DNA of 61,251 bases, the filler included, from Thelocarpon superellum (Eukaryota): NCBI GenBank assembly GCA_026025795.1. It is 3 parts of 3 records of this genome, joined end to end, with 100 filler letters (N's around TTAATTAATTAA, not from the genome) between each part and the next. Parts side by side here need not be neighbours in the genome. Positions count along the whole stretch, not along the records: positions 1 to 20,433 come from JAPEUG010000325.1; 2 more parts are not named here. One strand, given 5' to 3'. Shown in pieces: positions 2,821 to 25,788 of this stretch; the first letter of the stretch is position 1; each line of letters opens with the position of its first letter. The notes under the pieces are model-generated. The model did not search any database. It had not been told where the DNA came from and saw only the letters and a program-made list of their open reading frames with translations. The position numbers were made by a program, and so were the translations under genes.

Positions 2821-4823
2821 TTACTCCTGCTCCTGCTCGTGTACGATATCAGAATAAGGCATGACACCAGGAAGAGGAATCGTAGACCCAGGCCCAGGAG
2901 AAGTAGGAGAAGAAGAAGAAGAAGAAGAAGAAGAAGAAGAAGACGAGAATAAAGTAAAGGCCCGAACAACAGCGACCAGCTCCGCCCGTCTAATTTCCGA
3001 GTCGAAGATCTGTGCGTGGTCCAGTTCAGGGAGATAGTGAATCTCCAGTCCGTTTCTTTCTTTTCGTATCTTCCCTTTTCTCATAGCCTCTCTTTTTCGC
3101 TCGCTTTCACTGCCCCTTTCGTCCTCGTCCTCGTCCTCGTCCTCGATCTCGTTCCTGCTGTCGTCGCCTTCTTGTACGCGGGTCGTCCCCGAGTGTGGTG
3201 AAGCAAGCTCAGACTCCGTCAGGTATTCATAGACTTTCTTCGTGTTCACGATCAGGTCGTGCCCGGCGAGAAAGACGGCCGTTCTCGGTTTTGTTTCCTG
3301 CACTTGGATGATAGGGCTGCCAGTAGTGCCAGCGCCAGCGCCAGTGCCAGCGCCAGTGGCAATGGAGATGGAGGCGTCAGAAGTCGACGGGATGTACCCT
3401 GGCAATTCCGTCTTCCAGATGATGTTCTCCGCCCAGAAGAAATGACGTGCCAGCGTATGCGACACCCCCATGTCCATGCTGGCGAAATGCCAGAGCTGGT
3501 GCTCGTTGGCTCGTACTGGTACACGTCGCGTCTGCACATTCATCATGTCAGCGAGGGAAAGGATAGAAGGGAGGAATCGCGGGGGACTGTACAAAGTTAT
3601 ACGCTACATCTGGAAGGTGAAGCAGGATGGTGACGGGGTCAACAAGAACGAGCTTGACAATGCCTGCGGATGTTTCCGGGTCTTGCAGCAGGTGTGTTGC
3701 AAGGACCGAGCCGTATCTACCAGTCCTCACGAGTCAGTCCACGCCGTAACCTGAGCGAGAAAGCGTACGAATGAGTCACCAGGACGTATTTCGTCCAGCC
3801 GTGATGGCGCAAGATGGTCTGGATTTGCATCCGCATCTCGTGCTTGGATAGCGCAGGAGAGGTGATGCGGAATGACACCGGCATAATCTCCAGTGCGATG
3901 ACGCCCGGCTCGCCATCTTCGTCGGGGTGAGGCCGGTTCAGCTCGGCAAGAAAGGGCGCGTATGGGAAAAGGCCAATGCCAATCCCGTGGAGGAAGAGGA
4001 CGGGGAGACGGGTGGTGGAGGTGTGGGGACGGTGCCAGTAGGAGACCTTCGCCGACGGCGAGACATGCCTGCTCAGGAGCGTTTGGGTACGCGGGGGAAA
4101 GACGTGCAAGAAGCGGACGAGGGGGGTGCGGTAGTGATGGAAGCGGTGCCAGTGGAGCCGGAATGAAGTGGCCATGTCAACGATCATGATACACTGCAAC
4201 ACGTCAACACGACCCTCCTGCGTTAACCCGATCGCGGCGAGCCGTACCAGATACCAAAAAAGACTTCGCTCCAACATCGGCACCCGATCCAGGGTCAAGC
4301 GTAGGCACTGGATATCGGCTCGCCCGGGTGGAATGTGGATCCCAAATTTCTCTTCCATCCGACTGACGTAGCCCTCGAGCTCCTCGTCGTCGAGCTCGGC
4401 ATCCGTCATCTGGCCGTCGAGAAAGGCCCAGCAAAAGAACTCCTTGACGTTGTCTCGTCGGATCTGAGCCAACGGGACACCCATGAACCATTTGGACAGG
4501 TAGCTCTCGGGATTGTCGACCGTGGCCAAACATCGCTCGCTCAAGGCAATGCGTTGCTCTCGCGAAACTGCATCCGGGTGGATCGCGGCGCTCTGAAGAG
4601 ACCATCGGCGGGGCAAGTAGACGAACACGATGAAGAGCGTGTCGAGCACGGCCCATGCCTCCAGGACCAGAGGGAGACGAGGAAGACGAGCGAAGGAGGT
4701 GAGGGACAGTAGGACCGCCACGATGAGGTAGCAGAAATAGCCAAGGCTGACGAAGACGAGCGAGCGCAGCAGGACGATCCAGAACTGAATGTGGACATAG
4801 TCCCAGGTCGAAGTGCCGATCAT
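2821..4823 (-). CDS. Membrane-anchored alpha/beta-hydrolase fold protein (4 exons)
   Basis: Two N-terminal hydrophobic segments; 'PVLFLHGIGIGL'; nucleophile elbow 'VTHS|YGS' formed across an intron; 'LVLVDPV'; C-terminal 'LDHAQ' His. Intron 4247-4194 is in-frame, and two more introns lie near 3770-3717 and 3593-3533. Confidence 0.8.
2908..2943. repeat. (AGA)n / (TCT)n trinucleotide microsatellite encoding poly-Ser at the hydrolase C-terminus
   Basis: Direct reading: agaagaagaagaagaagaagaagaagaagaaga. Confidence 0.9.
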
Positions 4824-5655
4824 GATGCGCGATGGTCACCATGAGGGGATTCCAAGGGGAAGAGAACAAGGTCTAAGCTCTACAGGTATGACCATCCTCT
4901 ACGAGACAGGTACTACTGATGTCAATATTGTCACGTCACGGAGCAGTAGTGTTCATCGACAGGGTCCAGTGGCGTGACGCATACATGAGAAACAAGGGCC
5001 ATTCAACCCGCTTCGTCACGTAGTTAGGGCGAAGTAGGTAGCGCAACTGGCACGGTGGCTCAAGTTCGCTTACGCTTGGGCACGGGCTTAGGCGTTGGAG
5101 GCGTTGAGCGATACGAAAGGCGTTGGGACCTGTTCCTCGTCAAGCGCCGAGTTAGGTGGTAACATAACATATTTTTAGGCTTCGTGATTAGGCAGCCTTG
5201 GCGGGGGCCCCTCGTACACGTGCTCGCCACTCGTATTTTGTTCACACGGGTACGACCTTGAGCTTCCATGGACTTCGAGTTGGGAGGCCTTCAAGATTAT
5301 TTGAATTGCACTCGGACACACGGAGCGCTCCCTGGTAGAGATAAACGCCTTCCACCTCTTCCAACTCCACGGAGTGCCCCGAGGCATCCAGATGCTTACC
5401 ATGGAAGATTTCCTCTCCTACTCGAATCGCAAGTCGACTTCTCTGTCCGCGCGATTCGCCGTCTATGGTCCGCGGCAGCCGTGTAGATCACTGGCCGGTT
5501 CCTTGCCCCTCTGGAAACCAGATTCGACCCAGCGCAAACGGGTCAACAGGCCAAGAACACCATGGCTCTCTTCATCCCTGCGTCGGACTTGATCGGACCG
5601 ATGTCACGGAGCAACGGAATGCTTCGGTCGCAATGGATCAAGGTTCGTCCGTTGA

Positions 5656-7480
5656 TCACGTCGGTCGTCGCAGGGGATGCGCCTCGGTGTTACTGCTCCC
5701 GTTAGCTCACCCTCTCCTCGTGGAGGGACCGACTCACAAGACGTATTCGTCCAGGCTTATCAAGCTCGGCTCGCTGAAGATCAGGTAGAAATACTTCAGC
5801 GTCTCGCCAAGCCAGAAGCTTTCCATGCTGTCTGCGTGCTGCGGATTGGCGCTGGTGACGTCGTCAATGGCGGAGCTCGCGATGTCGGTCCTCGTGGCCT
5901 TTTCGATTGCTTGGAACATGGTCCAGGCTTTGTCCTGATAGCTCCGGTCACCCGTGGTTCGATAGTGGATGAAGACGGACTCGATCGCTTCCGGTCGTAA
6001 GATGTATTTACGGTCCCCCCAGGATTGAATCCCACGCGGCACTTCATCGTCCGTGATCTTGACCGCGTTCCACTGCGCCTCGTCCCACTCACAGCGATCC
6101 GCATCCTGGCAGGGGATGACATGAAAAGACTCTGGCATGATGCCGGTTGACGTGACCGAGTATGCCCACACGCATCCGTCCACGAGCCGTCGGCCGACGT
6201 CCATGTCTTGAGGCCGATCAAAGATCTTGCTCGCTAATTCCACCATGCCGCCGACAAAGCAGGCCAGATGCTGCCCTTCTGCGTCTAGCACCGGATTGCC
6301 GGACGCGTGGTCTATGCGGACGTTGCCGGACAGGAGCACATCGCGTGCGTCTGGGAGCATAGGCCGGTAGAAGACGTGGCGCTTGACGACTTCAATGGCC
6401 TTGAGGTACATCTTCCGCGGCTGGTCCAGGACGCCCCCGAGCAGAAGATATTGCTAGCCGGCGCGGTCAGGGCCAGACGGGTTGGGGGCGGGGCAGGGCC
6501 GTTCTCACCTTGGGGAGGTACTCGTATGTTGAGTCACTCAAGGCGCCCAAGGAGAAGCGGTTGTCAATCCGGAACGACAGCTGCCTGGCGTCGTTGATCA
6601 AGGGCCACATGCCGGGCAGCTGGGTGTAGTCCTGCGCCTTCTCCAACTCATCGGAGATGCGCTGCACGGCGTCGTAGAACTTTGGGTCCCCAGTCAACTG
6701 CGACAGCCGGGTGAACTCGAGGCTGAGCGAACCCAGCTCGGCAATGGAGGTAGCGGGCGACGCCGCCTGGCTCTCATTGTCTTGGGCCCCCTTCCACCGC
6801 CACCAATTGACGGGCATCCGGTTGGGCGTATCGAAGGCGGCGTACAGCATATCCGCCATCTCGACCGCCATGTCTAGCAGGATGGGATAGCGGGCGCCGC
6901 TGACATCGTAGGCGGCCAACAGGCCGCCAAAGTGTCGGATCGTGGTCTCGAAGATGCTGCGCGTCTCAGCCTCGATGGCGGTGAGGTCGATGCCGGCGCG
7001 GAGGGCGAGGATGGCTTCCTCAAACTCGCCCTTTTCTCCCATGATCCACAGAGTATCCAAGCTGTCGACCAACGTCGTGGCCCATCCAAAAGAGCGGGTC
7101 GAGCCCCCTTTCACCGGGGTCAGCTCGTCTTGGAGCCAGGCGTGCTGTTTATAGCCGCGCCAAGAATGAAGCAAGCTCGCCTTGACCGCCTGCTGCCTCG
7201 CCAGCCTCGTCGTTCGCTCCCCGGCGCTCTCCCGGCGAGGGTCGTGTTGAATGCGGGGAATCTTGCGTCCTCGGCCGGTGGGCAACGCGAGCATGGCTGC
7301 GACCGGATACTGTTCCACCCGGTGGGCCCAGTCAAATCGATCTGGGGCCGGGATTGGTCGCACGTAGGGATGCCATGGCGTCTGCCATTGTGCACCGTCA
7401 GAGAAGGCCCGTCGAGTAAGTAGGTAGAGAGCGATGGCGAAGATGGCGAGGGCGACCAGCACCCGCGCTCGGAGCTTCAT
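5656..7480 (-). CDS. Class I alpha-1,2-mannosidase (GH47), type II membrane protein (3 exons)
   Basis: Signal anchor 'RVLVALAIFAIALYLL'; motifs 'WATTLVDSLDTLWIMG', 'FETTIRHFGGLL', 'LGALSDSTYEYLPK', 'YILRPEAIES', 'DSMESFWLGETLKY'. Terminal exon 5692-5656 gives 'FNTEAHPL'. Introns 6508-6454 and 5737-5693. Confidence 0.95.
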
Positions 7481-9247
7481 CTTGGAGCAAACGCGAACGG
7501 TCGGCAATCCTTGGCCGTGGTCGTCTCAATCCGGCAGCGCTTTCTCTGGTGCGGGCGTTATCTTGTCGCACATGATGTCCACTCCGCCGCCATGTCACAC
7601 AGGCTCGCAGGCGACGGCCTGGTAGCGCTATAGTTAGGCAGTGGATCGAATACCGGCAATTGGACTTGGCGTCGAGGGGTGAGCACGGGTTGGAGAGCAA
7701 AGAATGAGAAGGCAGTCGTTCAGGAGCCACAGAAGGGCTCGGCGACTCTGTGGTGAAGCATCAATATTCCGCACCCTCAAAATTATCTCCAGAGCCCAAC
7801 AATACTCGGAGTAGTGGGCGCACAGGAATGTGTCAGAGCCAGCTGCTCGCATCGCCGCTGCGCGCTTGTCTACTTGCACGCAGACGGGATGGGATGCGAA
7901 CTCGTACGTGTCCAACCTCCCCTGGTTTGACACCCAACCTGCCAAGACGTGGTGCAGATTCGCAGAGGCGCTATCCTCCGTCTCACACGCCAGACGAATG
8001 GCACCGCTCCTGTCATGGCATGACGCTGCAGCTGCGGGTAGGCCGGCAAGGGCGTGACCGCTGGCCCGTTTCAGGTACGAGTACGGCCGATCGGCAACGA
8101 CGCAGCCCCGCGTCAGGAACCGGCCCGCAGTTGACATCTTGGTCATGCTGCCAAAGCCTACTGTAGCACAATTAGCGACCGGAAGCTTGGATGCCGTTGG
8201 TGGTCGCAATCGTCACGCCAAGGCATCATCCTCGCTGCACGTTTTCACGCAGGCAGGGTCGTGCCCCCTAGGAGGCTAGGCCAAATGTTGTAGTATCTGT
8301 AGCTCCATGCATCTCTCTTCAGTATCGAATAGCCATATCCTCTCCACTGAATGGCGGGCATGTCCTGAACGGCAAGCATTGTGTGCCACTCTCGCACATG
8401 CTGGGAGCTGGGAGCTGGGAGCGACACGCTCGGCTTGCAGCCAAGCGAGCGGTGGAAGATGGCCTCGCGTGTTCGTACGCCGTCTGCACAAACTCAGGAG
8501 CGCACAATCGATTTGATCAATTCACCTCACCACACCACTCTTCACGGATGGTCGATGCCAACCCGCATCAGATGCCGCCTCGTCCGTGGAGTCGGCGCCT
8601 CCCACACCTGAGGTGACCTGTCGATCTCCAACTTCGTTCAGGATATCCAACCCGAATCCCGCTGTTCTCGGGGTGCGGGTGCCGATGGTTTTGGGTCGCG
8701 TCTAGGTTGCGTGGCAGCCATGTGCACACCCGGCATGAAACGTATCCATGTCCTCTCGATTTTCTTTTTCTGACTTTAGCTCCATCTCACCATCTTCACC
8801 CCCATCCGCCCGTCCTCCACCCATGTCATGCTCTGATCCCAAGCCACTGGGCGTCACGCTTACTGTGCCGCCCAGCCACGTGGAGCCACCCACACGACGC
8901 TGCATCGACTACGCATTAGATGCGTCTCGGGCGGCAGGTCCATGCCCCTGGGGAAGCTGAGCCGCCGCTCAACCCTGTCTTGCAGCCATTCTCGGCATGG
9001 AAAAGTCTCACTAGGGTTGTTTCTTTACTTCCTGATACGACTGCTGGCAGGGTCAAGACACCCTCCTACTATTACGCCGGGTATTGGTAGCCGCTGAAGC
9101 CCACCAAATCGATCGGATGGCTGCCCAGCCGGCATGCGGTCTTCACGCGGCCTCGGGGGTGAAGAGGAGATTTGCTGTCCATAAAGGCGGACCAGTCCCC
9201 CTTCCCTGCCCCCGCTATTGTTATCCCATCTATATTCTGCTTCCGCC

Positions 9248-12200
9248 ATGTCTGTCAATAACGATGCCACGAAGGAAGCCAGAAGGGTGGTGGAAGAAAT
9301 CGCCGGCGACAATGGCGTCTTCACTCCCGAGCGCAGGGCGTTGGAAACCCCGGCCAGCTTGAGAACGATAGACAATCTGAAAGGCATTGCCTTGGCAGCC
9401 GCTCAGAAGTACCCAATCCTGTGATGAGTGGACAACAGCAGGGGGAGAACTGACGCTCATAGGCTGGCTGGCGATCTATATGACAAACCGACTCACTTCA
9501 TTCTCGAGTCCATTCAGAACGCCGACGATAATGCGTATGCTCCAGGTGTACTCCCAAAGTTACGCCTCTACCATAGCGTTGGCTGCATCTGGATGGATTG
9601 CAACGAGCTCGGCTTCGAAGAGGCCCACGTCCGGGCCTTGTGCAATGTGGGCAAGAGCACCAAGGGAAGTGGAAAGGGACGCCAAGAGGGCTACATTGGC
9701 GAGAAAGGAATTGGCTTCAAATCGATCTTTAAGGTGGCTGAGCGCGTGCACATTAACTCGCCACCCTATTCCTTTGACCTGGACGGGTCCCGGGAGATGG
9801 GCATGATCACTCCCCGCTGGGTAGTCCCGGATCCGGAGCCAAGCCTGTCGAGAATGGGCTACCAAACTCAGCTCACCCTTCTCCCTCCGGACGGCAAAGA
9901 CTTTCGGAGCCTCGCCGATGCCTTCCGAGAAATTAGGCCGACATTGCTGATCTTCTTGCGTCGCCTGAAGTCCATCGAGGTCACCGTAAGCCCCTGCTTC
10001 GGCGTAGCAGCTTTCCACACCTCCTATACCACCACCTGGGCTTCGGACAGCGAGTCCGTGACCATCGACGCGCTTGAAATGGGACTGGCAGGAAAGCGGC
10101 AAGAACGGCGCAAGTACTTGGTGGTCAAGGATAGATTTGGTCGTCTTCCCAAGGAGCCACTGCGTACGGACATCAATTCGACCGAAGTGGTGCTCGCGTT
10201 TCCCGTCGACGAGGATGCAAACCTGGTGGACGAGACACAATCTGTACATGCCTTCTTACCCGTTCGTGATATCGGGCTCAAGGTACGTCGCACAGACCTC
10301 GAAACTACGCCTGATGGTAATTTAAGATGATCGAGCAGTTCGTCGTCCAAGCCGACTTTCTCCTTACCTCCAATCGCCAGGACGTGCATGGAGCCAGCCC
10401 GTGGAACCTACGTCTCAGAGAGTGTGTGGTGTCGACCTTTGTGAAAGCTATGGCCCGCTTTCGCGAAGCGGAAGGGCTGAGACATACCTGGATCCGCTAC
10501 CTACCAGACGACGGAGCTGAAGATTTCTGGGGCGGGCTGAAGAATGGCATTCTCGAGAAGATCAAATCCCAGCCCGTTCTCCTATCGCGCGATGGGCGGC
10601 TGGCGGTACCAAATGCGCTCAAGTCCATCGAAGCAGGGTTTTTGGACAGGTATGGAGCTCCACTAGCTGGTCCCGACAGCACCTTCATTTCCCCTCGTTA
10701 CTCCCCGGGAGATGTGCACATCCTCGAGCGACTGGGTGTAGGGACTTTAGGGCGGTGGCGTGGCCTCATCAGACACCTCAACGCATGGGACCCGGCGGAG
10801 TTCGCAAGTCGTTCAGAAGCTTGGCACGAGGATTTTGCAGATGTCTACTTTCGGCAATCGATCTTTCAGCGGCAAACTCTTGCACCGGACCTTTTGCCCC
10901 TGCCATTGATCCCGTTAGAAGGCGGAAGCTGGGCCCGGTCGAGCCGTTATAATGGCGGAGGTGCGATCTACTTCCGCGGACCACCGGGTCTCCGCGAGAT
11001 TCCCGCCGACGTGAAGCTCAGACTTGTCGACGCCAAGGCATCCCAACACAATAGCCGACGCGAGCTCTTCAAGGCCATGGGTGTTACTGAATGCCGTGTC
11101 GGCGACGTGGCATCCCTTATCTTTACCATGCACGAGTCGCCATCGCCTCCACCTTTCGCCAAGGCCATCGCCCATGTGCGCTACATCTTCGGACATGAGT
11201 CGGCGAGAGACGACCCCCGAAGTGCCCAGCTTTGGCTCTTCGATTCTAATTGGAGCGCTGTCAAGGGTCCGGCCCTGTACCTCGACACCGATGCCGGACC
11301 GTTCAGTCCATTCCGGCTCTTCAACAAGCAGCAATCAAGTCGTTTCGCGGCGCGATTTCTTCACGGGGATTACAACGTTCCACAAGAAGAGAAGGTCAGG
11401 TGGACTAGATGGCTAAAGGAATCGCTACGCGTGCAGACAATTCCAAAGCTTGGCGACGGTGACCAGATCTCCGCCGACTTCGCTTTCATTCTGAAAGAGT
11501 GGCCCCAACATGTCCTCGAGCTTTTGAGAACACACTGGGGCATCTATCGCCTATTGATGACTATTGGCATTCGACGCGCAATCGAGAAGTTTGAAGTGAG
11601 CTGCTCTGACGGCCGCAACATGACTCTCCAGCCACTGCGCGGCACAATTGCCCCCGAGCCGACTCTCCGCGACGAAGCTGCCCGTCTTTGCTCGCCAGTC
11701 ACTGTTTCCTTCCTAAGATTGGATCATTATTCTCGCCAGGACTGGGTATTCCTATCATACTTTGGCGTTCATTTCGATCTGGATCTTCCGTTCTACCTTG
11801 GTCTGCTGGAACAGATATCTCTGAAAAAACCCGACGATTGGACACATGCAAGCAGCCTCTATCATTGTATCGGACGACAGGCAGCAAAGTCCCAAAGTGC
11901 ACGTGATCTGGCCAAGTATGCTGTGGGCGATTTCCACTTGAATTCGATTAGGCTGACACCGAAAAGAAAGACTTTCCTTGCTGGCATTCGCATATACTAC
12001 GACGCGTCCTTCTGGTCGGTCAAAAACTGCGTTTGGGATGCTCCGGACGGCTTCACGGCCAGAAAGGCCCTCAAATCAACGTATGGCGACGATGAGGATA
12101 CTTTACGATTGTTCCACGAGATTATCGGTATCAAGAATGCTTCCCCCGCAGCGGTGCTTCGACATCTTGAAAACCGGTCTCTCGACAACACTCCCTTCGA

Positions 12201-15200
12201 GCAGTGGCTGTCCATTTACCGCTATCTGAGCGATGCACTGGAGGCTAAGGTTATAGTCTCAGAAGACCGTGATGTGATGTCAGCAAGGCAGCAAGTCCAG
12301 TAAGTCGAGCGAAGTAAGTTGCCACCTCCTGGTCGATACTCATTCTCAGCAGCGCTGCATCTCGCCAGAGAGCCTTTCTTCTGCTTCGGAAAAGGGACGG
12401 AGAGTCTCTTGTGACGACTAATGAGTGCGTCTGGGACTCCCCTGTTCCACTACCTGGAAAGAACGTGTTGAAAAGCACGTACATGGTCCATGAGTTTATG
12501 CCTGACTTCCTGCGAAATGTACTGGAGATCCACGACGCCACATCAACCGAGGTTTGTCTCCAGTTGGCACAATCGAACAGGGGAGGTTGTTGCTCCCTAA
12601 AGCATGCCCAAAAGATCTACGCGTACATCCACTGTAGACTCAAACATGAGGACGTTGGGTACATATGGTAAGTCATCTGAAGAGGGGTGTGTCTAGAAGC
12701 TTACTCGTGGCTCCTCTAGCTCAACGTTCGAAGCAGCGAGCATGATATATGTGCCCATCCCTGAGGGATGGAAGTGGCTCAAGCCATCCGAATGTGTCTG
12801 GAGGACTGCCGACCATCTGACACATGTCACTCCTCTTGTCGGGCACTACTCGAACAACAAGAATGCCACGTATTTCATCAGGAATACGCTTGGTGTGGGG
12901 GATGCTGGCCTGAGGCACTACGTGGAAGAGTTACGCCTTCTTTCTATTAAACAGGATATGACTTCCATCGAAGTTAAGCACGTGTCTCAACTGTACACCG
13001 ACATTCAGCGCTTTGGCGTCAGCGATCAATCCTACCTCAGGTATGTTGAACCTTGTTTTGCTTGTTCCCACCTGCAGTCTAATGCCCGTAACTCTCTCTC
13101 AGGCAAATGTTCGGGGAGCACGCTTTGATATACATATCGGGACGGGCCGAGAACAGCTGGAGACGCCTTGCCGAATGTGTATGGCATGGAGCCCAGGCGC
13201 TCAAGTCGCGTGTCTCTCTCTCACGCCGCTACGCCATGTTTTCCGAACTTTTTCAAACATTTTTGGAGATCGAAAACGCCACTCCCAAGATGCTGCTTGA
13301 CGAGATCCAGGACATCTCTTGCACGAATGCTGAGCCATCTGCCGAACAGGTGAAGTCCGTTAAAGACTTGCTCATGGGTCTCAACGACTTTGCCAAGGAC
13401 TCCAAGCGGCCGGGCATGCCGGAGGGAGTCTGCGAATCTCTGAAGACTCAGAGGTGTTGGCCGTGTCAGCAAGGAACAGCTACCACCACCTTCGTCTCGC
13501 TCGATGCAAGATTCTTCATCAACGATCGTCGCGACATTGCCGCCTTGTTCCAAGGAACAATACCAATCCTTGACTGCACCGTTGAAGAAGTTGGTCAACT
13601 CGAGCATCTCCTCAAAATAATAAGTCTCGACGATCGCTACCTGTCCAAGACTGAGGGGACCAACGAATCCCTGGGCCCGAAATTCGTGGATGGGGAGCGG
13701 ACAGCGCGCTGGAAGATGAAGGCAGAAGCAATTGCTCGGTAAGATGCCTTCCCGTGGCTCAGCTTGATTCCTGAAGCTTATTCTCGTAGCTGTGCCCTCC
13801 ATCGAAGAGTTCGGCTCAGCCCCGAATACAAGATACGACTTCGGCAGAAGTTGCGATCCGTAACGGTGTTCACTGTGGATAGTATCCGGTATAGCTTTTT
13901 GATAAATTCGCAAGGGTTTAACATCCGCAAAGATGACAAAGGCTTTGTCAAGATGGACCTGGACGCCGAGAATCCCACCATTGAACTTCCACGCGACTCA
14001 GAAGATGCTGCAGTTGCGGTTGTCGACCATCTGCCGAAAGGCTTGATCGCTTTCCTCAAGATATTCAACCCTGCCGCCCAAGAAACACTCAAGACGATTA
14101 TCGCCCTCCCGACTCCTCGGACGGTTGAGGCTACTCTTGATAGGAATGGCATCGATCGACTTGCTGAATCTCCGACTGCTTCCGAGATTGACGATCCAGA
14201 AGAGGTGATGATTCCGGGTCGTTCGACTGAGGCTGTCGCAGAGCCTTCCCCTGATCGCCCAACACCTGACTTGCCTCGTCCGATGTCTTTTACACCAATG
14301 GCCAGTCTGGAGAGAGAGAATAGATCTCATTCTGGTTCTGCACTGAACGTTATCTCAAGGTCTCTATCGCAGATTCTAGATGCCCCACGTGAAGAGAGTC
14401 GAACGCCGACCCCATCTAGGGGGAGCATCGATTTGCAGCACATCTCAGCGCCTATATTTGCGGTCGGCTCAATCTCAGCAGCTCGAAAGGCAAGGGCACC
14501 TGCCGATCCAACCAGACAGGCTCCGCCACCAGTATCACCTCCACCTCCACCGCCGGCATCGCCCTCACCACCAAGAAGATCAGCATGGGAACTACCATCT
14601 CGCAACGAGATAGGAGAGGTCCTTGGGGACACGACGGCCCGCAGGGAACGGGTGGTCAATGCGGCGCGAGCATTCGACGTGGGCCAAGTCGAAGTGATAT
14701 CATCTTTGCAGGCCTTGCGTCCGACTTCCAGGCCTGCCCTGGCTGCTGCCTTCAACTTCTCGGAACTGGCTGCTGCCCTCCCTGAAACCCCTTTGATAGC
14801 CGTGAATACGATTCAGCCAGCGCGGACAACCGCGGAGAAGTCGGGGTTTGTCACGAACGAAGCAACTGTACCGTCTCCTCGAGGAAACACAAGTAGCCGC
14901 GGTTTCGCCCCAAGAACAGATAGACAGCGGGCTCGCGATTTCGGGATCGGATTCGAGGGGGAGTTGTTTGTGAGACTCCCGTTCAATTCCTGTTTGGCCA
15001 ACCATACTGATCTGTGATGCAGGTAGTGGAAGCACTACAGCAGCGATTCCCATACTTCAACAAAGAGCGGGATTGGACCAGCAAGCTACGCAGATACGAC
15101 CCGGAAATGAGTGAATATCGCCATGCCGAAATCACGGACATCACGTACGCAGACACCGACGGGCAGATGACGGCGTGGCTATACGAGCTCCAGACGAATG

Positions 15201-15804
15201 GGAGGCAGGAAGTGCCCACGTGGCTCCGAAGAGCAAGAGAGGTCAACTTCGACCCGTCGTTGTCCTGGCCGACGTTTTATCTCGAGGTGAAAAGCACCAC
15301 GGCCGCCTGCCAGACGCCGCTTTTCATCAGTCGCAATCAGTACCGGACGGTGAGTTTCTCTCCACCATCACGATCCCCAAGCGGCCGTGGCGTCCCCAGT
15401 ATCACCAAATTGACGAAATATGCCTGTAGATGGAACGCATGACCGTCGCCACACCTCCGTCCGGCGCCGGCAGCGAGACCGAGAACGAAGAAGCAACGAC
15501 CCCGAGAGAGATCTACGTCCTAGTGCGTGTCTACGAATCCCCCGGCACCGAGAAGAAGATAAGGCTCTATCTCGATCCCTGGGCGCTGCGGAATTCCTTG
15601 CTAGTGATAGAGCCCGTGGATTATTCCATTGTACCGCGGGATCTGACCGCTGCTGCTGCTTCCAGTGCCTCTGAGGCTGATGCTTCTCCTGTTGCTGATA
15701 CTTCTTTCGCTACCATCTCTACTGCTACTGCGAGCGCCTTGGTCGTGGACTTAAGCATGGACTTGGACGGGTTCGAGAGCGAAGGAGTAGACGAGGGAGA
15801 CTAG
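9248..15804 (+). CDS. Large (~2015 aa) sacsin/NOV-like GHKL ATPase with central tandem repeats and C-terminal DUF3883/NOV-C-like PD-(D/E)xK domain (10 exons)
   Basis: Exons 9248-9408, 9463-10282, 10339-11915, 11967-12299, 12350-12667, 12720-13040, 13103-13738, 13790-14969, 15023-15349 and 15430-15804; all GT-AG and frame-consistent, 6048 nt total. GHKL boxes 'HFILESIQNADDN', 'CNELGF', 'IGEKGIGFKSIF'; transducer-like 'FLPVRDIGLKFVVQADF'; C-terminal 'GFEGELFV...DITYAD...FYLEVKST...ISRNQY'. Confidence 0.88.
11967..13440 (+). repeat. Four diverged protein-level tandem repeats, one per phase-2/phase-2 exon
   Basis: CVW-x11-L-x3-Y with Cys codons at 12028, 12426, 12793 and 13176. Each is followed by (I/L)(G/E)(I/V)x(N/D)A: IGIKNA, LEIHDA, LGVGDA, LEIENA. 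Confidence 0.85.
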
Positions 15805-15884: not shown

Positions 15885-17819
15885 TCAGATCTTGATCGCG
15901 CTAGGCACAGCAACGGTCAAGACGTCCAACCCGCCCTTCAAATCCTCCTTGGACGGCATCTTTGCGCGACGCATCAGCTCCGCAGAATGCGACATGACGG
16001 GATCTTTCTGCATCGTCGCCACAGCCACCACCGTCTCCCCGGCCGTGTAAAAGGCGGCGAACGAGCCGGATTCCAGTGACCCTTGAACCACCACGTCGTC
16101 CCATCCACCCGGCGTCGCGCCGCAGTATCGTAGCTGGCTGCCGAGCGCGGACCAGAAGATGGGGATGAACGGTTTGGGTTTGGGTTTCGCTTTTGCGTGA
16201 GTCGCGCTCGAACCCAACTGCACCGCCACGGCCCGCCCTGCGTTCTGCGCTACGTTCCAGTGCTCGATGCGCGCCGGCTTGCCGTTGCCGCCTGGGCCGT
16301 GGTAGGGGTATGTCGCGATGTCCCCGATGGCGAAGACGTCGCCGTGGAGGCCGGCGACGGCGAAGTTCTCGTCGGTCGTCAGCGACCCGTCCTTTTCGAG
16401 CCGGATGGCGGAGTTGTTCCGTAGGTACTCCGTGGCGGGGCCGACGCCGACGCCAAGAATGACCAGGTCGGCTGGGATGGTGGTCCCGTCTTTGAGGTGC
16501 ACGGCACCCACGACGCTGCCGTTTGCGCTGGACGCGCTGGCTTTGTCCACGCTCGCTTCCATGTAGAACTTCACTCCGTTCTTCTCCAGTGCGGTGCGGA
16601 AGACCTGGCCGACGCTCTCGCCCATGACGCGCTGCAGCGGGACCTTTTCCATCCCCACCACCGCCACCGTGTTCTCTTTGGCCAGCGCGTTGGCGACTTC
16701 CATGCCGATGAACGAGCTGCCAATCACCACGATGTTCTTCTTCTTCGACTCGCCGACGGCGCCCAGGATGGCTTGTACGTCGGGGATGGTGCGCAGCACA
16801 AACACGTTGCCGAGCTCCTTGAACCCAGGGAGCGGTAGTCGCTTGGGCGTTCCTCCTGACGCGAGCACCAGCTTCGTGTATGGGAAGGTGGTCCCGGACG
16901 CAGTGGAGACGCTCTTGGTGCCGAAGTCGACCTTGGTCACCTCGTCCGTCACCAGCTCGATCGATGCCGCCGCGTACCACTCTGCCGGGCGCAGGAGGAG
17001 CTTGGCCGCGTCCGCGATCAGCGCCTTGGAGAGCTTCGTGCGGTCGATGGCGGGATATGGCTCGCGGGAAATGACAGTCACGCGGCCTTTGTATCCGTTC
17101 TTGCGGAGTCCCTCGAGCAGGCCCGTTGCTCCGCTCCCGCTGTTGGAACGGTCAGTCGATTGCTCCACCGTATTCAACGTATCGAAGGAGACAAACCCTC
17201 CCACAACCACCACCTTCTCCGCGCCTTGTGCCTGACATGACACGTTGGATGAGCCACGGTTCGCTTTGATCGTCGCCTCGTCACCGCTGATGTAGATAGC
17301 TCCGTTCTTTTCCACGATCGGGAACTTGGCCAGTGGGTCGAGAGCCGGACTATCCTCGACGTCCCCACTAGCCACATTGAAGCACGCTGGAAGACGGATC
17401 AGTGCATGCATAGTCTCCGATTGAGAAAACACAGCCTCACCTCCATGCCACGGGCATGTCAAGCGGCCCTCGCCCGTCAAGATTCCCTTCACCAGGGGCG
17501 CACCATAATGGGTGCACTTGGGCGACAGGGCATGGACCTGCTCTCCGACCTTGACGACCAGCACCTTACCATCCTCGATGCCCTCGACCGCCACCTCACG
17601 CTTCTCGCCGTCTTCCAGACTCAGCGAGTCGAGCTTGAGCTTGTATTCCTGCGCCATCTTGCGGGAGCTGGTCCGGTACGTCGCGACCGGGAGAAAGTGA
17701 GGCACTGATGACGGATGATGCCAGGACGTCGACGTCGGAAGGAATTTAGGCGCCGCCGGATGACACCGGTGTTGGAAGCTGTAGAAGGCTCTGAGATTGA
17801 AAGCCTTGTAAAGGTGCAT
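15885..17819 (-). CDS. AIF-like Rieske [2Fe-2S] + FAD-dependent pyridine nucleotide-disulfide oxidoreductase (AIFM3/Aif1 type)
   Basis: Rieske 'CTHYGAPL...CPWHGACF'; FAD 'VVVVGGGSG' after removing intron 17196-17140; NAD 'VVIGSSFIGME'; 'FAIGDIA', 'RIEHWNVA', 'PIFWS'. Second intron 17440-17387. Alternative start at 17657 (MAQEY). Confidence 0.92.
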   Translation of the reverse strand: MHLYKAFNLRAFYSFQHRCHPAAPKFLPTSTSWHHPSSVPHFLPVATYRTSSRKMAQEYKLKLDSLSLEDGEKREVAVEGIEDGKVLVVKVGEQVHALSPKCTHYGAPLVKGILTGEGRLTCPWHGGEAVFSQSETMHALIRLPACFNVASGDVEDSPALDPLAKFPIVEKNGAIYISGDEATIKANRGSSNVSCQAQGAEKVVVVGGFVSFDTLNTVEQSTDRSNSGSGATGLLEGLRKNGYKGRVTVISREPYPAIDRTKLSKALIADAAKLLLRPAEWYAAASIELVTDEVTKVDFGTKSVSTASGTTFPYTKLVLASGGTPKRLPLPGFKELGNVFVLRTIPDVQAILGAVGESKKKNIVVIGSSFIGMEVANALAKENTVAVVGMEKVPLQRVMGESVGQVFRTALEKNGVKFYMEASVDKASASSANGSVVGAVHLKDGTTIPADLVILGVGVGPATEYLRNNSAIRLEKDGSLTTDENFAVAGLHGDVFAIGDIATYPYHGPGGNGKPARIEHWNVAQNAGRAVAVQLGSSATHAKAKPKPKPFIPIFWSALGSQLRYCGATPGGWDDVVVQGSLESGSFAAFYTAGETVVAVATMQKDPVMSHSAELMRRAKMPSKEDLKGGLDVLTVAVPSAIKI

Positions 17820-18093
17820 TAAATCTATAGGTTGAGGAGAAGAGTCTGTGAAGGACGGACGGCTGGCCCCGGGATTATTGTGAGGGGCCCCCAACATGCG
17901 GGATACGGGATACGGGATACGACTTGGCGACGGTGTCACGTCATCATCAACAATCGGATCGCTCCGATTGGTCTACTGAGGACGTGAACGCTTGATCGCT
18001 TAGGCCTGAAGACGGTTACTGAAAAAGGCCGTGCGAATGTCAGTCATGACTTCTGTATATTGATATACTTGTACAGGACATGAATGGGTAGGG

Positions 18094-20433
18094 TCAAGTG
18101 GAGCCATCATCTAGTGAGACACCCTCGCCCGAGACCGCCTCGATGATGCGCGGGTCTTGAAGCTCGGCAAAGTTCAGCTCAAGATGATAGTCATCCTCGG
18201 CGTCCCCCTCGGCTTCATCGTCGCTCGGCATCTCAAATTTGCTGTACACTCGCTCCCCCGTGTCTGCGTCGTAGTGCTTCGTTGACGTGGGCCGGTCGCG
18301 TCGGGCGAGCGTCATGCGAAGGGTGCCATCCACGACGTCGTCCACCACGGCGGTACGGTAGTCCGACACTTCTGGTTCCCAATTCGCTCCCATCAGAAGC
18401 TGCTTGAATGCCACGACGGTTCCCCGTTGTAGATCCGTCATGGTAGCAGTCGGATAGATGTTTGGATCTCCCGTCATCGTCGGTAGGTCTGGCACTTCTG
18501 GCTCCAGTGGGGCCGCGTCTTCGACGCCGCTAAACCCATGACCGTTTGACCCCTTTCGACTGCCGTTGGTATTCGCCGAGGATCCATGATCCGCATCGTC
18601 CTGATCCGACTGATCCACGCCATTGGAAGCCTTGCGCTTGCGCTTCTTGCTGGATCGGGTTGACTTGGATGGCCCGCGGTCCCAGCCTTGGACAAAGGGA
18701 AACGGAGGTGTGCTCATTTCCGCATGGTCCTCGTAGCATTCCACTGCCGAGAGAATGATCCGATCCTTCCACGACTCGTCGAGACCGGCGTCAGCAGATC
18801 CGTTGACAGGCCCGCCATGATCCTCTGGCCCAGATGAGATTGCCGCCGGGACCATGCGAGGAGTCACTTGCTTCGTCAGCCTGCGTCGCATCTCCTCCTC
18901 ATCCTCTTTGGTTTTGGGCGTCCTGAGACCCAGCGATCCGAAAAGCATCCGTCGCGAGCTCGCTAGGTCTAACTTGGTCCGGGCTCGCTTCGGCTGCGGT
19001 TCGGATTCGGGAGAATCGACCACCACGATGTCGGCAGCAGGTGCCTCAATCTCCGACAGTCCATTCGCCGGACGTTTGAGCGCAGCGTCGGATGGCGGTA
19101 GGCCATATGAGTCCACGTCACTCCCGCCAGACTGAATGGCCACCAGCAAGTCTTTCTTTTTGGCTGTCAAATCCTCCCCCTTGGAGAGCGCAGACTGGAC
19201 ATGACCCTCGGCGTGTTCGATGGTTGGCTCGGGAACAGATGGCTCGCCAGGGATCGATTGGCTCTGGCGTAGGTATTCCAGGAGTGCATCTTTATCCGCC
19301 GTTGGTGGGAGCGCTCCCATGGCCTTTAATCGCTTCAGCTTCCTGCTGTCTCGACGCCGCTGATTACGCGTCTTGGTTGCGGTCAGCCCCTCCCCTGGGG
19401 GCGCCTGTCTTTGCGAGGGTGGGGTTTTGCTGGTTGCAGGAGCTGCGCGCGGCGGAGACGGAAGCGGAACTTTGGCGGGACGTGGCGGCCGGACGCGGAT
19501 TGGGCGAATAGGTTCCAGAGAGGGCGGGTCGGAGGACTTGACGGACGAGTCGGAGGACGTGTCGTCGTCGTCATCCGAGGACGTGTCCTCGGACGATGAA
19601 GATTGGCCGTCATCCGAGTCCGAGTCATCACTTGTAGACTCCTTCCCGTCCTCTGAAGGCACAACATCATCGAATCGCAATACCTTTCCCTCGCGAATAG
19701 ACCTCTTCGGTGACGATCGCGTTCCATTCCTTGGTGGTCCCTGTGATGTTCGAGACCGTAGACGATACTTGGGTGAGGCCTTTCCCATATTTTCAGACGC
19801 CCTTGGTGAGTCTTCCACATCCTGACTCTCGGATCCACCATCCACGTCGTCGTCGAGGCCAAAGTCGTCATCGTCCTCGTCGTCCTCCGACGGGAAATCC
19901 TCGGCCGCGGAGGCGCCAGCGGTGAGGAGCATGGTCGAGCCATTGCCAAGCATGCGCTCATCATCTTCCCCGTCCGATCCCAAGTGCCTCTTTCTCTTTT
20001 TCGGCGGGATCTTGATTGCGGGCCGGTCCGGGGCGGGACGAAAGAAGGGTCGTCCGAATGGCACGCCGTCGATGAGCCGCCTCCCGTCCGCGGTGATTTG
20101 GTGCCGTCCAGAAAGGGTACGAGCGCGCACGTCAGATGTACGCAACGGCCGAATCCTACACAGCGTGGTCAGTCGGCGAGGGCATGTCGAGTTGGAGAGT
20201 ATTTGATTGGACGAACTCAACTTGATCACCGTCTCGCAAGATGGCGTCGACCTCATGATAATGCACACATTCGAAGCCCTCCACCTCAACCACGTAGTCT
20301 TCCAACCCCCATTCGCCCGCCTCGAGGGGAAATGTCTCGTTGACCTGTTCTAGAAGCTGGGCGACGGTGGTGGAGCGGGTGGTGGAGCGGTCATCTTGGT
20401 TGCCGGTGCTCTTGAGCTTCCAGAGCACACTGG
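18094..20433 (-). CDS. Coilin-like protein (5'-truncated by the segment end)
   Basis: N-terminal ubiquitin-like segment 'TVAQLLEQVNETFPLE..WGLEDYVVEVEGFECVHY...ILRDGDQV'; long S/D/K-rich disordered middle with NLS-like KKRKR; C-terminal 'GTVVAFKQLLMGANWEPEVSDYRTAVV' resembles the coilin Tudor-like motif. Intron near 20216-20156. Confidence 0.65.
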
Positions 20434-23932: not shown

Positions 23933-24770
23933 GGCGACACCGAAGCACGATGCGCGGAGCACGGTGCGGGGAGACACGGGGAGAGGGATGATCACGGTCT
24001 CAAATCCGCCGCGGTGGCGGTTCGTCTTGGATGAGGCATCCAATCGTTGGGGAAGCGTCGGCCGTGAGGCTGCAGGGGGGAGGGCGTTCCAGGAGTAAGG
24101 GCGAGAGGCAACGAGGAAAGGCGAGGGAAGACGAGGTCACGACAACAGGAAGGGCATTAGTGGAAGACACGGTCCTTTGTGCAAGGTGTGGAAAGTCATC
24201 AACGCCTGGCCGTGCCGCAGGTCGACCCCGTTCCTAGAGTGCGGCGTCACTTCTATGCCTCACAGAGACCAGCTATACAGGTCGAGCACACGGTAACTGC
24301 GAAGTCGGCAGGCTCCGATCGATCCAACAATGCCGTTCTTATCCCCACGGCCGATCTAGCCTGCCACCGGGAACAAATGGATCTCCGAGAGTCCGTCTGG
24401 TAGGGGCAAGGAAATGGCCAGGGCCTTTGCGTCTCAGACGCCCGCGGACCCCCGTACTTCCTACATGAAAGTGAATTTTGTCGGCAAGTTCAGCAAGCGC
24501 CGATAATTACCTAATCGGTCTCGGTCACTCGGCGCGTCGATAGCCCACGGGCCCGAATGCCCCCCAACCTCCGCACGTCTTATCGGAGCATACCACGGAG
24601 CGATCCAACACAAGCATCGCCCGTGACCGACCAGTCACTGTCCTTCCTACACGAAAGGGTGTGAGAACCAGACGGTCGCTGTTCTCGTTCAACAGACCTG
24701 GCTGACGGTGCGCTCGCTTGGTGACATCTTCCTAACCACCCCTCACTGCGCTCGACCCAATCGATCCAAC

Positions 24771-25303
24771 ATGGCCAAAGGACTACGCTCCAGCGTCAAG
24801 AAGGCGAACAAGGCCAAGCTGCGATCCCGAGTGTTCGGGCCGGTGGAGAATGCTCGAACGGAGCGCTTGTCCGCCAAATTGCTGGAGCTGGCCGCCGAGC
24901 CCAAAGCCGTCAAGGCCACTGACATGACGATGGATCTCGAACAGAAGCGTAAGAGCCTTCCTCCCATCGAGCGCAGACACGGGCACGCGAGCCTGACCCT
25001 TCGCACAGAGCCCAAGAACCCGGGTCCTTTCGCCGCCGAAGATGCACGACTTGAGAGCGATGGTCAGAGCTGGTCGTCCCCATCGTCCCGAGATACCCCG
25101 CTAACGACCGTGACTCGCGCACAGAAATGGACGTGGATGAAGGTCCCGGCGCGCAAAAGTCCAAAGCGAAAGCGAGCAAACAGAGAAGCCCCGGCCGGAT
25201 CCAGAAGCGAGGACGGGGAAAGGCCAAGAACGCCGTCGTCTTTCCCACCTACGGCAAGAAAGGGAGAGGCAAGGGACCGGGATTCACGGGATCGCGCCGA
25301 TAA
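24771..25303 (+). CDS. DUF2423 small basic nucleolar-type protein (YBL028C-like), 3 exons
   Basis: 'MAKGLRSSVKKANKAKLRSRVFGPVENARTERLSAKL'. Introns 24949-25007 and 25063-25124 give the C-terminus 'EMDVDE...RIQKR...VVFP', stop at 25301-25303. Confidence 0.85.
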
Positions 25304-25788
25304 CTAGCTCATGGTCACACCTGCGCCGGCGTTTATGAGGTATGGTGGTGCGTCCCGGCTCTAAATCGCCTCTTACATGCAATTCGCTCTCTCACACGGT
25401 CCGTATATCATTATAACATCCACATGGCAACGTGCTCGCATCAAATGAGGGGCAGCCTGGGCACCTGAACTGCTGTCGCCGTAGACTGAGCACGACGCTC
25501 ATGCCTTGGGGCCCATCCTTGGTCCATGACCTCGGCTTTCCCTGTTTGGGTGAAGCTCCCATATAGAGTTTGGAGATTCGTCAGACACGAAGACCAGTGA
25601 CGGACTTGGCGCAGCTTGCACGTCAAAGAGTAAACATCGCTCGACTCTTCAGTAGAAGCTCCTTGATGCCAAGCTGCCCCCGGTCATTGGTCGTCGGCAT
25701 GGTCATCACCCATTGGTAACGATCGAACCAGGAGATGTGAAGCTCACGTTGTCGCGGCCGTCAAGCTGCCGGTTGAACGCGGCCTACC

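Follow-up and report, generated by a model that had tools for sequence, protein, structure and literature searches.

The closest described relatives of the gene reported here are bacterial Tiamat (TmtA) and the NO VEIN (NOV) proteins of plants and animals. The family has been described in two preprints dated 1 October 2026, bioRxiv 10.64898/2026.09.30.754977 (the Tiamat preprint) and bioRxiv 10.64898/2026.09.30.755639 (the second preprint), whose statements are given here from the portions of text available. In the Tiamat preprint, Tiamat from Bacillus cereus is described as an ATPase and single-stranded DNase, and ATP hydrolysis, DNA cleavage and a defence phenotype are reported for this protein only. 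Repeated folds in 1-6 copies lie between the ATPase and the nuclease of Tiamat, the middle region was proposed to be a fast-evolving sensor, and homologues were reported across eukaryotes, including the Ascomycota (bioRxiv 10.64898/2026.09.30.754977). A middle with a variable number of repeats was also proposed as a sensor in the second preprint, which gives the core of the family as ATPase, alpha-solenoid repeats, beta-sheet motif and NOV_C, with fungal homologues having the core only (bioRxiv 10.64898/2026.09.30.755639). Transfer from prokaryotes to fungi is considered in both. We analysed a window of 61,251 nucleotides, filler included, from Thelocarpon superellum (GenBank assembly GCA_026025795.1), made of three parts of three records joined end to end, of which positions 1 to 20,433 come from JAPEUG010000325.1. 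The gene at 9248-15804 on its forward strand is, by its sequence, a fungal Tiamat (TmtA)/NO VEIN-like protein with a GHKL ATPase, a repeat middle and a NOV_C-type nuclease. The repeat middle between ATPase and nuclease holds four units (U1 to U4, aa 853 to ~1289). U1, U2 and U3 each occupy one exon that is symmetric (phase 2 on both sides, 2-2) and a multiple of three in length, and the exon of U4 also carries a module that is not a unit.

The gene shares with bacterial Tiamat the N-terminal GHKL ATPase, a homologous C-terminal nuclease region and the placement of repeated folds between the two. The same unit of ~105 aa was also found in the middle of metagenome open reading frames (ORFs) for which TmtA models match most or all of the sequence. 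In contrast to bacterial Tiamat, the fungal gene is eukaryotic, has nine introns and a long Pro/Ser-rich linker, and any antiviral role of it is putative; it has four strong units, in comparison to one strong and one partial unit in the bacterial-type ORFs. With Arabidopsis NO VEIN and animal NOV it has the family core in common, whereas the fungal homologues are described as being without the eukaryote-specific N-terminal region and as separate from plant and animal NOVs in the tree (bioRxiv 10.64898/2026.09.30.755639). Sacsin is a further relative, as SACS is the best Pfam match on the ATPase of our gene and the ESM Atlas clusters nearest to U3 carry DUF3684 and DUF8348 (PF27504) on a minority of their members. 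In sacsin the whole supradomain of ATPase plus solenoid is repeated and the protein ends in HEPN and J domains (bioRxiv 10.64898/2026.09.30.755639), whereas here only the unit is repeated.

Two other groups are alike in organization. Fungal NLR-like (STAND) proteins with hypervariable WD40, ANK or TPR repeats also have repeats beside an NTPase and belong to a family linked to non-self recognition, and some homologues of our gene are named heterokaryon incompatibility proteins in their source. The repeats of fungal NLR-like proteins are highly similar to each other, recombine and are visible at the DNA level, whereas the units here are 18-24% identical, form no DNA repeat and have a fixed number in the relatives found, and no NACHT or NB-ARC domain was found (see below). 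In metazoan symmetric-exon modules, too, each exon encodes a single structural unit, has equal phases at its two ends and is a multiple of three in length, and copies can be added without frameshift. These modules are typically of the 1-1 phase class, in contrast to the 2-2 class of this filamentous ascomycete gene with its array introns of 50-62 nt.

The original prediction, made from the sequence of the window, had put the array forward as the best candidate for an undescribed system. This did not hold, as the gene product is a GHKL-ATPase/PD-(D/E)xK protein like Tiamat and NO VEIN and a sensor in the repeat region has already been proposed in the two preprints. What is new here is the 2-2 symmetric unit exons in fungi, a detail of gene structure in a known family and not a new defence system. 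The terms 'intron phase', 'exon duplication' and 'symmetric exon' are absent from the full text of both preprints, and 'exon' is absent from the Tiamat preprint.

Gene model and family assignment

The gene model has its ATG at 9248 and its stop at 15804, with 10 exons and 9 GT..AG introns. The spliced coding sequence (CDS) of 6048 nt gives a protein of 2015 aa with no internal stop. Introns 3 to 7 are the array introns (Table 1); their donors are of the fungal type, they all end in AG, and all five are in phase 2. The four further introns of the model are at 9409-9462, 10283-10338, 14970-15022 and 15350-15429, and with the first of these included six of the nine introns of the gene are in phase 2. 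At an assumed, unmeasured phase-2 frequency of 0.25-0.3, five consecutive phase-2 introns would occur by chance with a probability of ~0.001-0.002. The spliced protein was colinear end to end with the protein P0001 of Chaenotheca gracillima (1982 aa), with 48% identity over 2002 columns. In this alignment, to what is itself a predicted protein, no gap at any of the five array junctions exceeded 2 residues.

Reading through three of the five array introns led to a stop immediately, and for the fourth (13041-13102) a stop followed just past the end of the intron. The intron at 11916-11966, 51 nt long, was the only array intron that is in frame and free of stops. If retained, it would add 17 residues (YAVGDFHLNSIRLTPKR-like) just before U1 and leave the reading frame intact. 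An insert of 17 aa at this junction was present in neither of the close relatives. Every forward exon-skip junction among the array exons gave an in-frame sense codon.

The family assignment was based on both ends of the protein. The PADLOC model of TmtA (PDLC03972) matched exon 2 with E 1.3e-39, and TmtA matched P0001 with E 8.9e-79 over aa 46-701; the hidden Markov models (HMMs) of TmtA stop short of the four units of our gene. The GHKL motifs ESIQNADDN and GEKGIGFKS were intact in the translation, and the ATPase starts only ~55 aa downstream of the N terminus of the protein. The C terminus matched that of a second relative, P0002, with E 5e-20. A profile of the last 300 aa of the family, our gene included, matched the C termini of two long intronless TmtA-type ORFs with E 4.6e-9 and 6.8e-7. 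NACHT and NB-ARC were not found in Pfam scans of nine exon translations at E<=1, which gave only SACS, NOV_C and a chance match to DUF7437.

In their sources the relatives are named 'Protein NO VEIN C-terminal domain-containing protein', 'DUF3883 domain-containing protein' or 'putative heterokaryon incompatibility protein'. The last of these names is carried by P0013 and P0031. A HET domain was found on neither of the two in a Pfam scan at E<=0.01, in which P0013 matched only SACS and P0031 had no match.

The four units and their relatives

The four units are ~105 residues long and 18-24% identical to each other. In pairwise Smith-Waterman alignments all six pairs scored 4.5 to 10.1 standard deviations (SD) above 500 shuffles. 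The observed score was reached by none of the 500 shuffles in five of the six pairs, and by 2 of 500 for the pair U1-U3. The residues C, V, W, L and Y and a later A are invariant across the units. The spacing CVW-x11-L-x3-Y is ungapped in all four of them, and all four exons start at one column of the alignment. A unit profile built from 141 units of family members gave exactly four strong matches in the protein, with P 3.5e-19 to 3.9e-16, the next best being P 0.007. PADLOC and Pfam scans of the unit exons themselves gave no match. At the DNA level the only direct repeats within 11900-13800 were a 14-nt match in the ECVW codons and an 18-nt pyrimidine-rich match, and the units lie in four separate stop-to-stop ORFs.

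Most of what the original prediction had said about the array was thereby borne out. The rebuilt gene model has the five phase-2 introns and enclosed exons in multiples of three that it had described, the alignments support four homologous units with conserved motif spacing, and the array is, as stated, invisible as a DNA repeat and split over four ORFs. The claim of one unit per exon within five boundary introns stood for U1 to U3, but not for the fifth intron (13739-13789). This intron does not lie at a unit boundary, as the 636-nt exon before it contains U4 and the following non-unit 'CWPC' module. At the equivalent point P0005 ends and P0010 continues with a read-through signature (..LLR stop and ..LVRYAI). 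The CWPC module was considered as a fifth unit and ruled out, with a unit-profile probability of 0.4%.

Just before U1 the protein has a segment, here called unit 0, whose match to the unit profile covers the helical half (probability 86%, E 5e-6). Because of this match, the first phase-2 array intron also follows a unit, if a partial one. Other upstream traces of the unit in exon 3 were weak profile matches with P 0.007-0.01. Identity to P0001 was 38-52% for the units, 51% for exon 3, which holds the neighbouring non-repeat middle, 52% for the folded segment of exon 8 and 30% for the linker. The units therefore show no excess divergence and are conserved about as well as the adjoining non-repeat middle region.

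Next the four-unit profile (A1) was searched against 1.84 billion representatives. At E<=0.001 there were 637 matching proteins, of which the 150 best were taken. Units were counted after two rounds of profile refinement at E<=1e-3 per unit in 67 sequences of at least 1200 aa, drawn from the best 150 matches, P0001 to P0003 and our gene. Two units were detected in 59 of these proteins, three units in 3 and four units in 4, with none in the remaining one (P0003). The four-unit proteins are our gene, P0001, P0004 from Caeruleum heppii and P0081 from the amoebozoan Balamuthia mandrillaris. KAI9679215.1 is one of the four-unit proteins of C. gracillima and C. heppii, and the three-unit genes include KAH7305596.1 and KAF2008954.1. 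Where a protein has two units, these are of distinct types, 'A' for the first and 'B' for the second. By HMM scores U1, U2 and U3 are of the A type by 20-36 bits and U4 is B-like or ambiguous, with U3 being the best match to the canonical A unit of the two-unit homologues.

In an IQ-TREE analysis of 53 units, U1, U2, U3 and U4 each formed an orthologous clade across the three fungi, with support of 98/98, 99/91, 100/94 and 94/96, respectively. In the three-unit proteins, the first unit was the sister of U2 (95/93) and the last grouped with U4 (94/96). NCBI places one of the two relatives in the Coniocybomycetes and leaves the other unplaced within leotiomyceta. On this tree we firmly place the four-unit state before the divergence of the three fungi. 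With its four units 1:1 orthologous in the two ascomycete relatives, the array looks static, like an old and stable exon duplication. A duplication of a pair, from (A B) to (A B A B), was suggested by the colinearity in BLAST, whereas the HMM scores put U2 on the A side; the tree does not decide between the two. Our firm conclusion from the comparison is that units were gained more than once in the family. In Balamuthia (P0081 and P0154 to P0156) three of the four units formed a group of their own (88/86), distinct from the unit clades of the fungi, and this points to an independent expansion. Unit skipping was not found among the four annotated Balamuthia isoforms, which differ only at the N and C termini and have the same four units.

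Metagenome loci were collected with a pattern of the conserved ATPase motifs from a four-row alignment. It matched 597 stretches, of which 331 were confirmed as relatives, and 80 of the 331 were kept. At least one unit was found in 46 of the 80 loci, and in 25 of the 46 the unit lies in one ORF of at least 2.9 kb. These 25 long intronless ORFs have one unit each at E<=1e-3 and look bacterial in type. Four of them were scanned with PADLOC: in three, TmtA models match most or all of the ORF (E 6e-197 to 1.6e-252), and in the fourth the match is mainly to the N-terminal half (E 3.8e-77). Of the 25, 20 were examined at a looser threshold, and each had one strong unit at aa ~835-1086, of the B-like kind in all but one. 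In 13 of the 20 this strong unit is immediately preceded by a weaker, partial one, and in 4 of the 20 there is a further weak unit at aa ~370-505. In L011, L019, L032 and L071 a weak full-length unit match (aa ~370-505, E 6e-6 to 1e-2) directly follows the ATPase and transducer, and the unit module may recur earlier in the Tiamat middle region. The equivalent stretch of our gene (aa ~400-500) looks similar by eye and is not significant by profile.

The other 21 of the 46 loci are broken into short ORF segments and for this reason are taken to carry introns; two units were present in 16 and a single undifferentiated one in 5. GT..AG intron candidates in these loci were ranked by frame continuity and donor match. 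The best candidate for the intron before the first unit was in phase 2 in 20 of the 21 intron-bearing loci, and that for the intron between the two units in 13 of the 16. Both positions are the same as in our gene, '..hydrophobic-R / x-x-F-..-L-I-Y', where the slash marks the intron. Five intron-bearing loci (L001, L006, L027, L039 and L041) have a phase-2 intron before a single detectable unit that is neither clearly A nor B. Such loci may be intermediate between the bacterial-type and the two-unit fungal genes.

Boundary introns also left a trace in the protein search. Among the best 150 matches were 32 ORFs of one unit and less than 170 aa, all of them of the A type. In 19 of the 32, Arg is followed by a stop within six residues of the unit end, and 5 more read R-Y-[V/G]. 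Such ends are expected from a phase-2 donor, AG/GTAAGT or AG/GTATGT, that was read through by the ORF caller. At least one of the short ORFs lies on a 20-kb contig and is therefore not cut by a contig end. The unit-profile search that the original prediction had proposed gave copy numbers of two to four in most of the long homologues, and in most of the intron-bearing metagenome loci the best candidates for boundary introns were in phase 2. Its proposal that the module expanded by exon duplication is a reasonable one, as copy number differs and boundary introns of the same phase occur in many fungal loci, and its statement that a unit can be removed without frameshift agrees with the skip junctions.

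Proposed origin and putative role of the unit array

From the units, phases, family, copy numbers and orthology observed above we infer a duplication route and a binding role. In our account a Tiamat/NO VEIN gene acquired paralogous units by stepwise exon duplication, and these now form a fixed four-unit array with a role as an arm or in binding; we give this account as a whole a probability of roughly 0.75. The family shows a graded series, from one unit without introns in bacterial-type ORFs, to one unit after a phase-2 intron, to two, three and four units. Because of this series, a single intron gain followed by repeated exon duplication is the simplest account. It would have started with the gain of one phase-2 intron just before the unit. 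A tandem duplication of the unit exon and its intron would then have given the two units of most fungal homologues, and further duplication would have led to three and then four units in the lineage of T. superellum, C. gracillima and C. heppii. Each step would be frame-neutral, because the unit exons are 2-2 symmetric and multiples of three. Thereafter the array was presumably inherited as a fixed four-unit structure.

Structure predictions were made for a single unit and for three units together. The model of U3, from a 36-row alignment, had a pLDDT of 91.0 and a pTM of 0.77, and its predicted fold consists of a beta-hairpin, two short strands and four helices. A model of the three-unit protein P0007 (429 aa) reached a pLDDT of 89.5 and a pTM of 0.77. 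The order strand-strand-helix x4 repeats in each predicted unit of P0007, and the hairpin again opens the CWPC module. This pTM points to units packed together as a single rigid body rather than strung out as independent beads. Among ESM Atlas clusters, those nearest to U3 carry DUF8348 on 24-28% and DUF3684 (PF12449) on 18-20% of members, and PF27504 (DUF8348) is precomputed on P0001 and P0002.

By analogy with GHL ATPases and with B. cereus Tiamat, and following the GHL model of the Tiamat preprint, ATP-driven dimerization of the ATPase would close a clamp. A ligand, either nucleic acid or protein, could then be held by the repeat arm within the lumen of the ATP-closed dimer, with the PD-(D/E)xK domain as the putative effector that cuts. 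The two extra units would lengthen the arm between the ATPase and the nuclease.

Several points weigh against this account or narrow it. The exon map and its junctions are predicted from splice signals, frame and comparison. No sequence similarity was found among the five array introns (z -0.6 to 2.4), and because of this their common descent is not directly demonstrated. For the metagenome loci, each junction is the best candidate in a heuristic ranking based on donor match. A weak phase-0 candidate ranked best before the first unit in L003 (one of the 21 loci) and between the units in L002, L004 and L005 (three of the 16). Because several loci are near copies (L073/L074, L012/L048, L002/L004/L005, L025/L037 and L003/L008), the counts represent ~10 independent lineages and not 16 to 21. 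Unit-boundary introns are not universal and are absent or lost in some lineages: P0007 and P0010 have three units and the CWPC module in one uninterrupted ORF (429-454 aa), that of P0007 on a 22.7-kb metagenome contig.

The deep split between A and B units is weakly supported, with IQ-TREE placing U3 and U4 on the B side (80/83). For U3 this conflicts with FastTree and the HMM scores, which both place it with the A unit. In the Pfam scans, SACS was the best match on the ATPase with 31.0 bits, below its cut-off of 32.8, and NOV_C on exon 9 alone reached 13.3 bits, below its cut-off of 22.1, the domain being split by the intron at 15350-15429. We equate the unit with the 'TPR-like' or 'solenoid' repeat of the preprints from its position only. 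Against the Protein Data Bank (PDB) a single unit gave a best Foldseek E of 2.1, with none at E<=0.001, and a best Z of 4.0 in VIA-align over 48,161 chains, with none at Z>=5. The three-unit model gave a best Foldseek E of 0.03, with assorted helical-repeat proteins on top. As no PDB match was significant, no fold name can be assigned.

A different route to the same exon pattern would be parallel intron gain. Here the units would come from in-frame duplication of coding sequence, possibly before the fungi acquired the gene, and phase-2 introns would have been inserted later and independently at the same proto-splice site (..AG/G) in several units. The end of a unit, a hydrophobic residue followed by Arg, has a codon that offers AG/G or CG/G, the introns have no similarity to one another, and the bacterial-type ORFs already have a partial unit before the full one. 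The transfer from prokaryotes to fungi that both preprints consider would also make all introns later gains. In our gene the codon split at the unit end is AGG (Arg) at the U3-U4 junction only, and AAA, CAC and TGC at the others. With Arg at one of four such codons, the proto-splice site was not kept where the extra units join. Moreover, the single-unit loci already have a phase-2 intron before the unit, and one gain plus duplication requires fewer events. We consider parallel gain unlikely.

The original prediction had also seen in the array a variable region for sensing or specificity. Under this view the array is active: its symmetric unit exons would be skipped, lost or swapped by alternative splicing or unequal recombination, giving a variable sensor comparable to the hypervariable NLR-like repeats of fungi. 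The location of the array, between ATPase and nuclease, was as stated. The frame-neutral skip junctions, the range of two to four units across the family, the apparently separate rise to four units in Balamuthia P0081 and the proposal of the middle region as a fast-evolving sensor (bioRxiv 10.64898/2026.09.30.754977) all speak for an active array. The NLR-like variability did not stand. The low mutual identity of the units and the lack of a DNA-level repeat leave no substrate for unequal crossing-over, and the five introns, too, are dissimilar. The 1:1 orthology of the units in two ascomycete relatives, their identity to P0001 near that of the middle region and above that of the linker, the shared four units of the Balamuthia isoforms and the predicted rigidity of the three-unit body also argue against it. 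It is very unlikely that such a sensor array is at work here. In its mechanistic form, skipping or re-duplicating unit exons would adjust how long the ligand-holding arm is and what surface it presents, and the series of one to four units across genomes would be the slow trace of a process also at work within populations or transcripts; this, too, has little probability. If true, it would mean that fungi tune the sensor arm of a Tiamat-type immune ATPase-nuclease.

Finally, a gene-model artefact, with some introns unspliced or the locus a decaying pseudogene and the phase pattern forced by an open frame, is barely credible: intron 3 could be coding, but read-through meets stops at or just after the other introns named above, two independent relatives align colinearly with the spliced product and show no indels at the junctions, the same intron positions recur in many metagenome loci and the catalytic motifs are intact.

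Feature map, surroundings and meaning for the family

The features of the gene are listed in Table 1. The linker in exon 8 (~14155-14905) is rich in Pro, Ser and Ala, is apparently disordered and connects the folded middle to the nuclease. No other part of the protein is so poorly conserved: the linker is 30% and 25% identical to the two close relatives, with many gaps, and is more variable than the units.

Table 1. Features of the Tiamat/NO VEIN-like gene of T. superellum, in positions of the window; exons and introns are those of the predicted gene model
Feature	Position	Strand	Basis
Whole gene, fungal Tiamat/NO VEIN-like, 10 exons, 2015 aa	9248..15804	+	Open CDS; colinear with P0001; TmtA match N-terminal
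Exon 2, GHKL/sacsin-type ATPase domain, motifs ESIQNADDN and GEKGIGFKS	9463..10282	+	PADLOC TmtA E 1.3e-39
Exon 3, transducer and start of middle region; ends with partial unit 0 (aa ~800-841)	10339..11915	+	TmtA HMMs cover first 90 aa
Intron 3, phase 2, 51 nt, GTATGC..CTGAC..AG	11916..11966	+	Homologous phase-2 intron is best candidate in 20/21 loci
Exon 4, U1 (aa 853-963), 333 nt, phase 2-2	11967..12299	+	Clade with first units of P0001 and P0004 (98/98)
Intron 4, phase 2, 50 nt, GTAAGT..CAG	12300..12349	+	Immediate stop on read-through
Exon 5, U2 (aa 964-1069), 318 nt, phase 2-2	12350..12667	+	Orthologous clade 99/91
Intron 5, phase 2, 52 nt, GTAAGT..TAG	12668..12719	+	Splice signals, frame
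Exon 6, U3 (aa 1070-1176), 321 nt, phase 2-2	12720..13040	+	A model 83.4 bits vs B model 46.9
Intron 6, phase 2, 62 nt, GTATGT..CAG, after '..SYLR'; conserved, between last two units	13041..13102	+	Homologous intron phase 2 in 13/16 loci
Exon 7, 636 nt, phase 2-2, U4 (aa 1177-~1289) and CWPC module (aa ~1290-1388)	13103..13738	+	Unit profile
Intron 7, phase 2, 51 nt, GTAAGA..TAG, not a unit boundary	13739..13789	+	Read-through signature in P0005 and P0010
Exon 8, folded segment (aa 1389-~1510), Pro/Ser-rich linker (aa ~1511-1760), nuclease start	13790..14969	+	P0001 comparison
Exons 9-10, NOV_C-type PD-(D/E)xK nuclease, D in ..TDITY.., E-V-K in ..YLEVKST..	15023..15804	+	P0002 and family profile

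Other genes of the window are of the housekeeping type (5734-7525 -, 15885-17972 -, 18094-20349 - and 24627-25307 +). They comprise a GH47 alpha-mannosidase (intron-split), a Rieske and pyridine-nucleotide-disulphide oxidoreductase (AIF-like), a coilin-like Tudor protein and a YBL028C-type ribosome biogenesis factor. The window ORFs at 1399-2595, 2821-3603 and 3717-4835 gave no Pfam match, and the surrounding genes of the window showed no sign of a defence island.

The gene of T. superellum belongs to a family whose status as an ancestral immune module, common to bacteria, plants, animals and fungi, was recognised only recently. Should the fungal genes be of bacterial origin, the array would be a compact case in which a filamentous fungus first gained an intron and then duplicated the exon. 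In functional tests, the homologues with one to four units could serve as naturally occurring variants in the length of the putative sensor arm.

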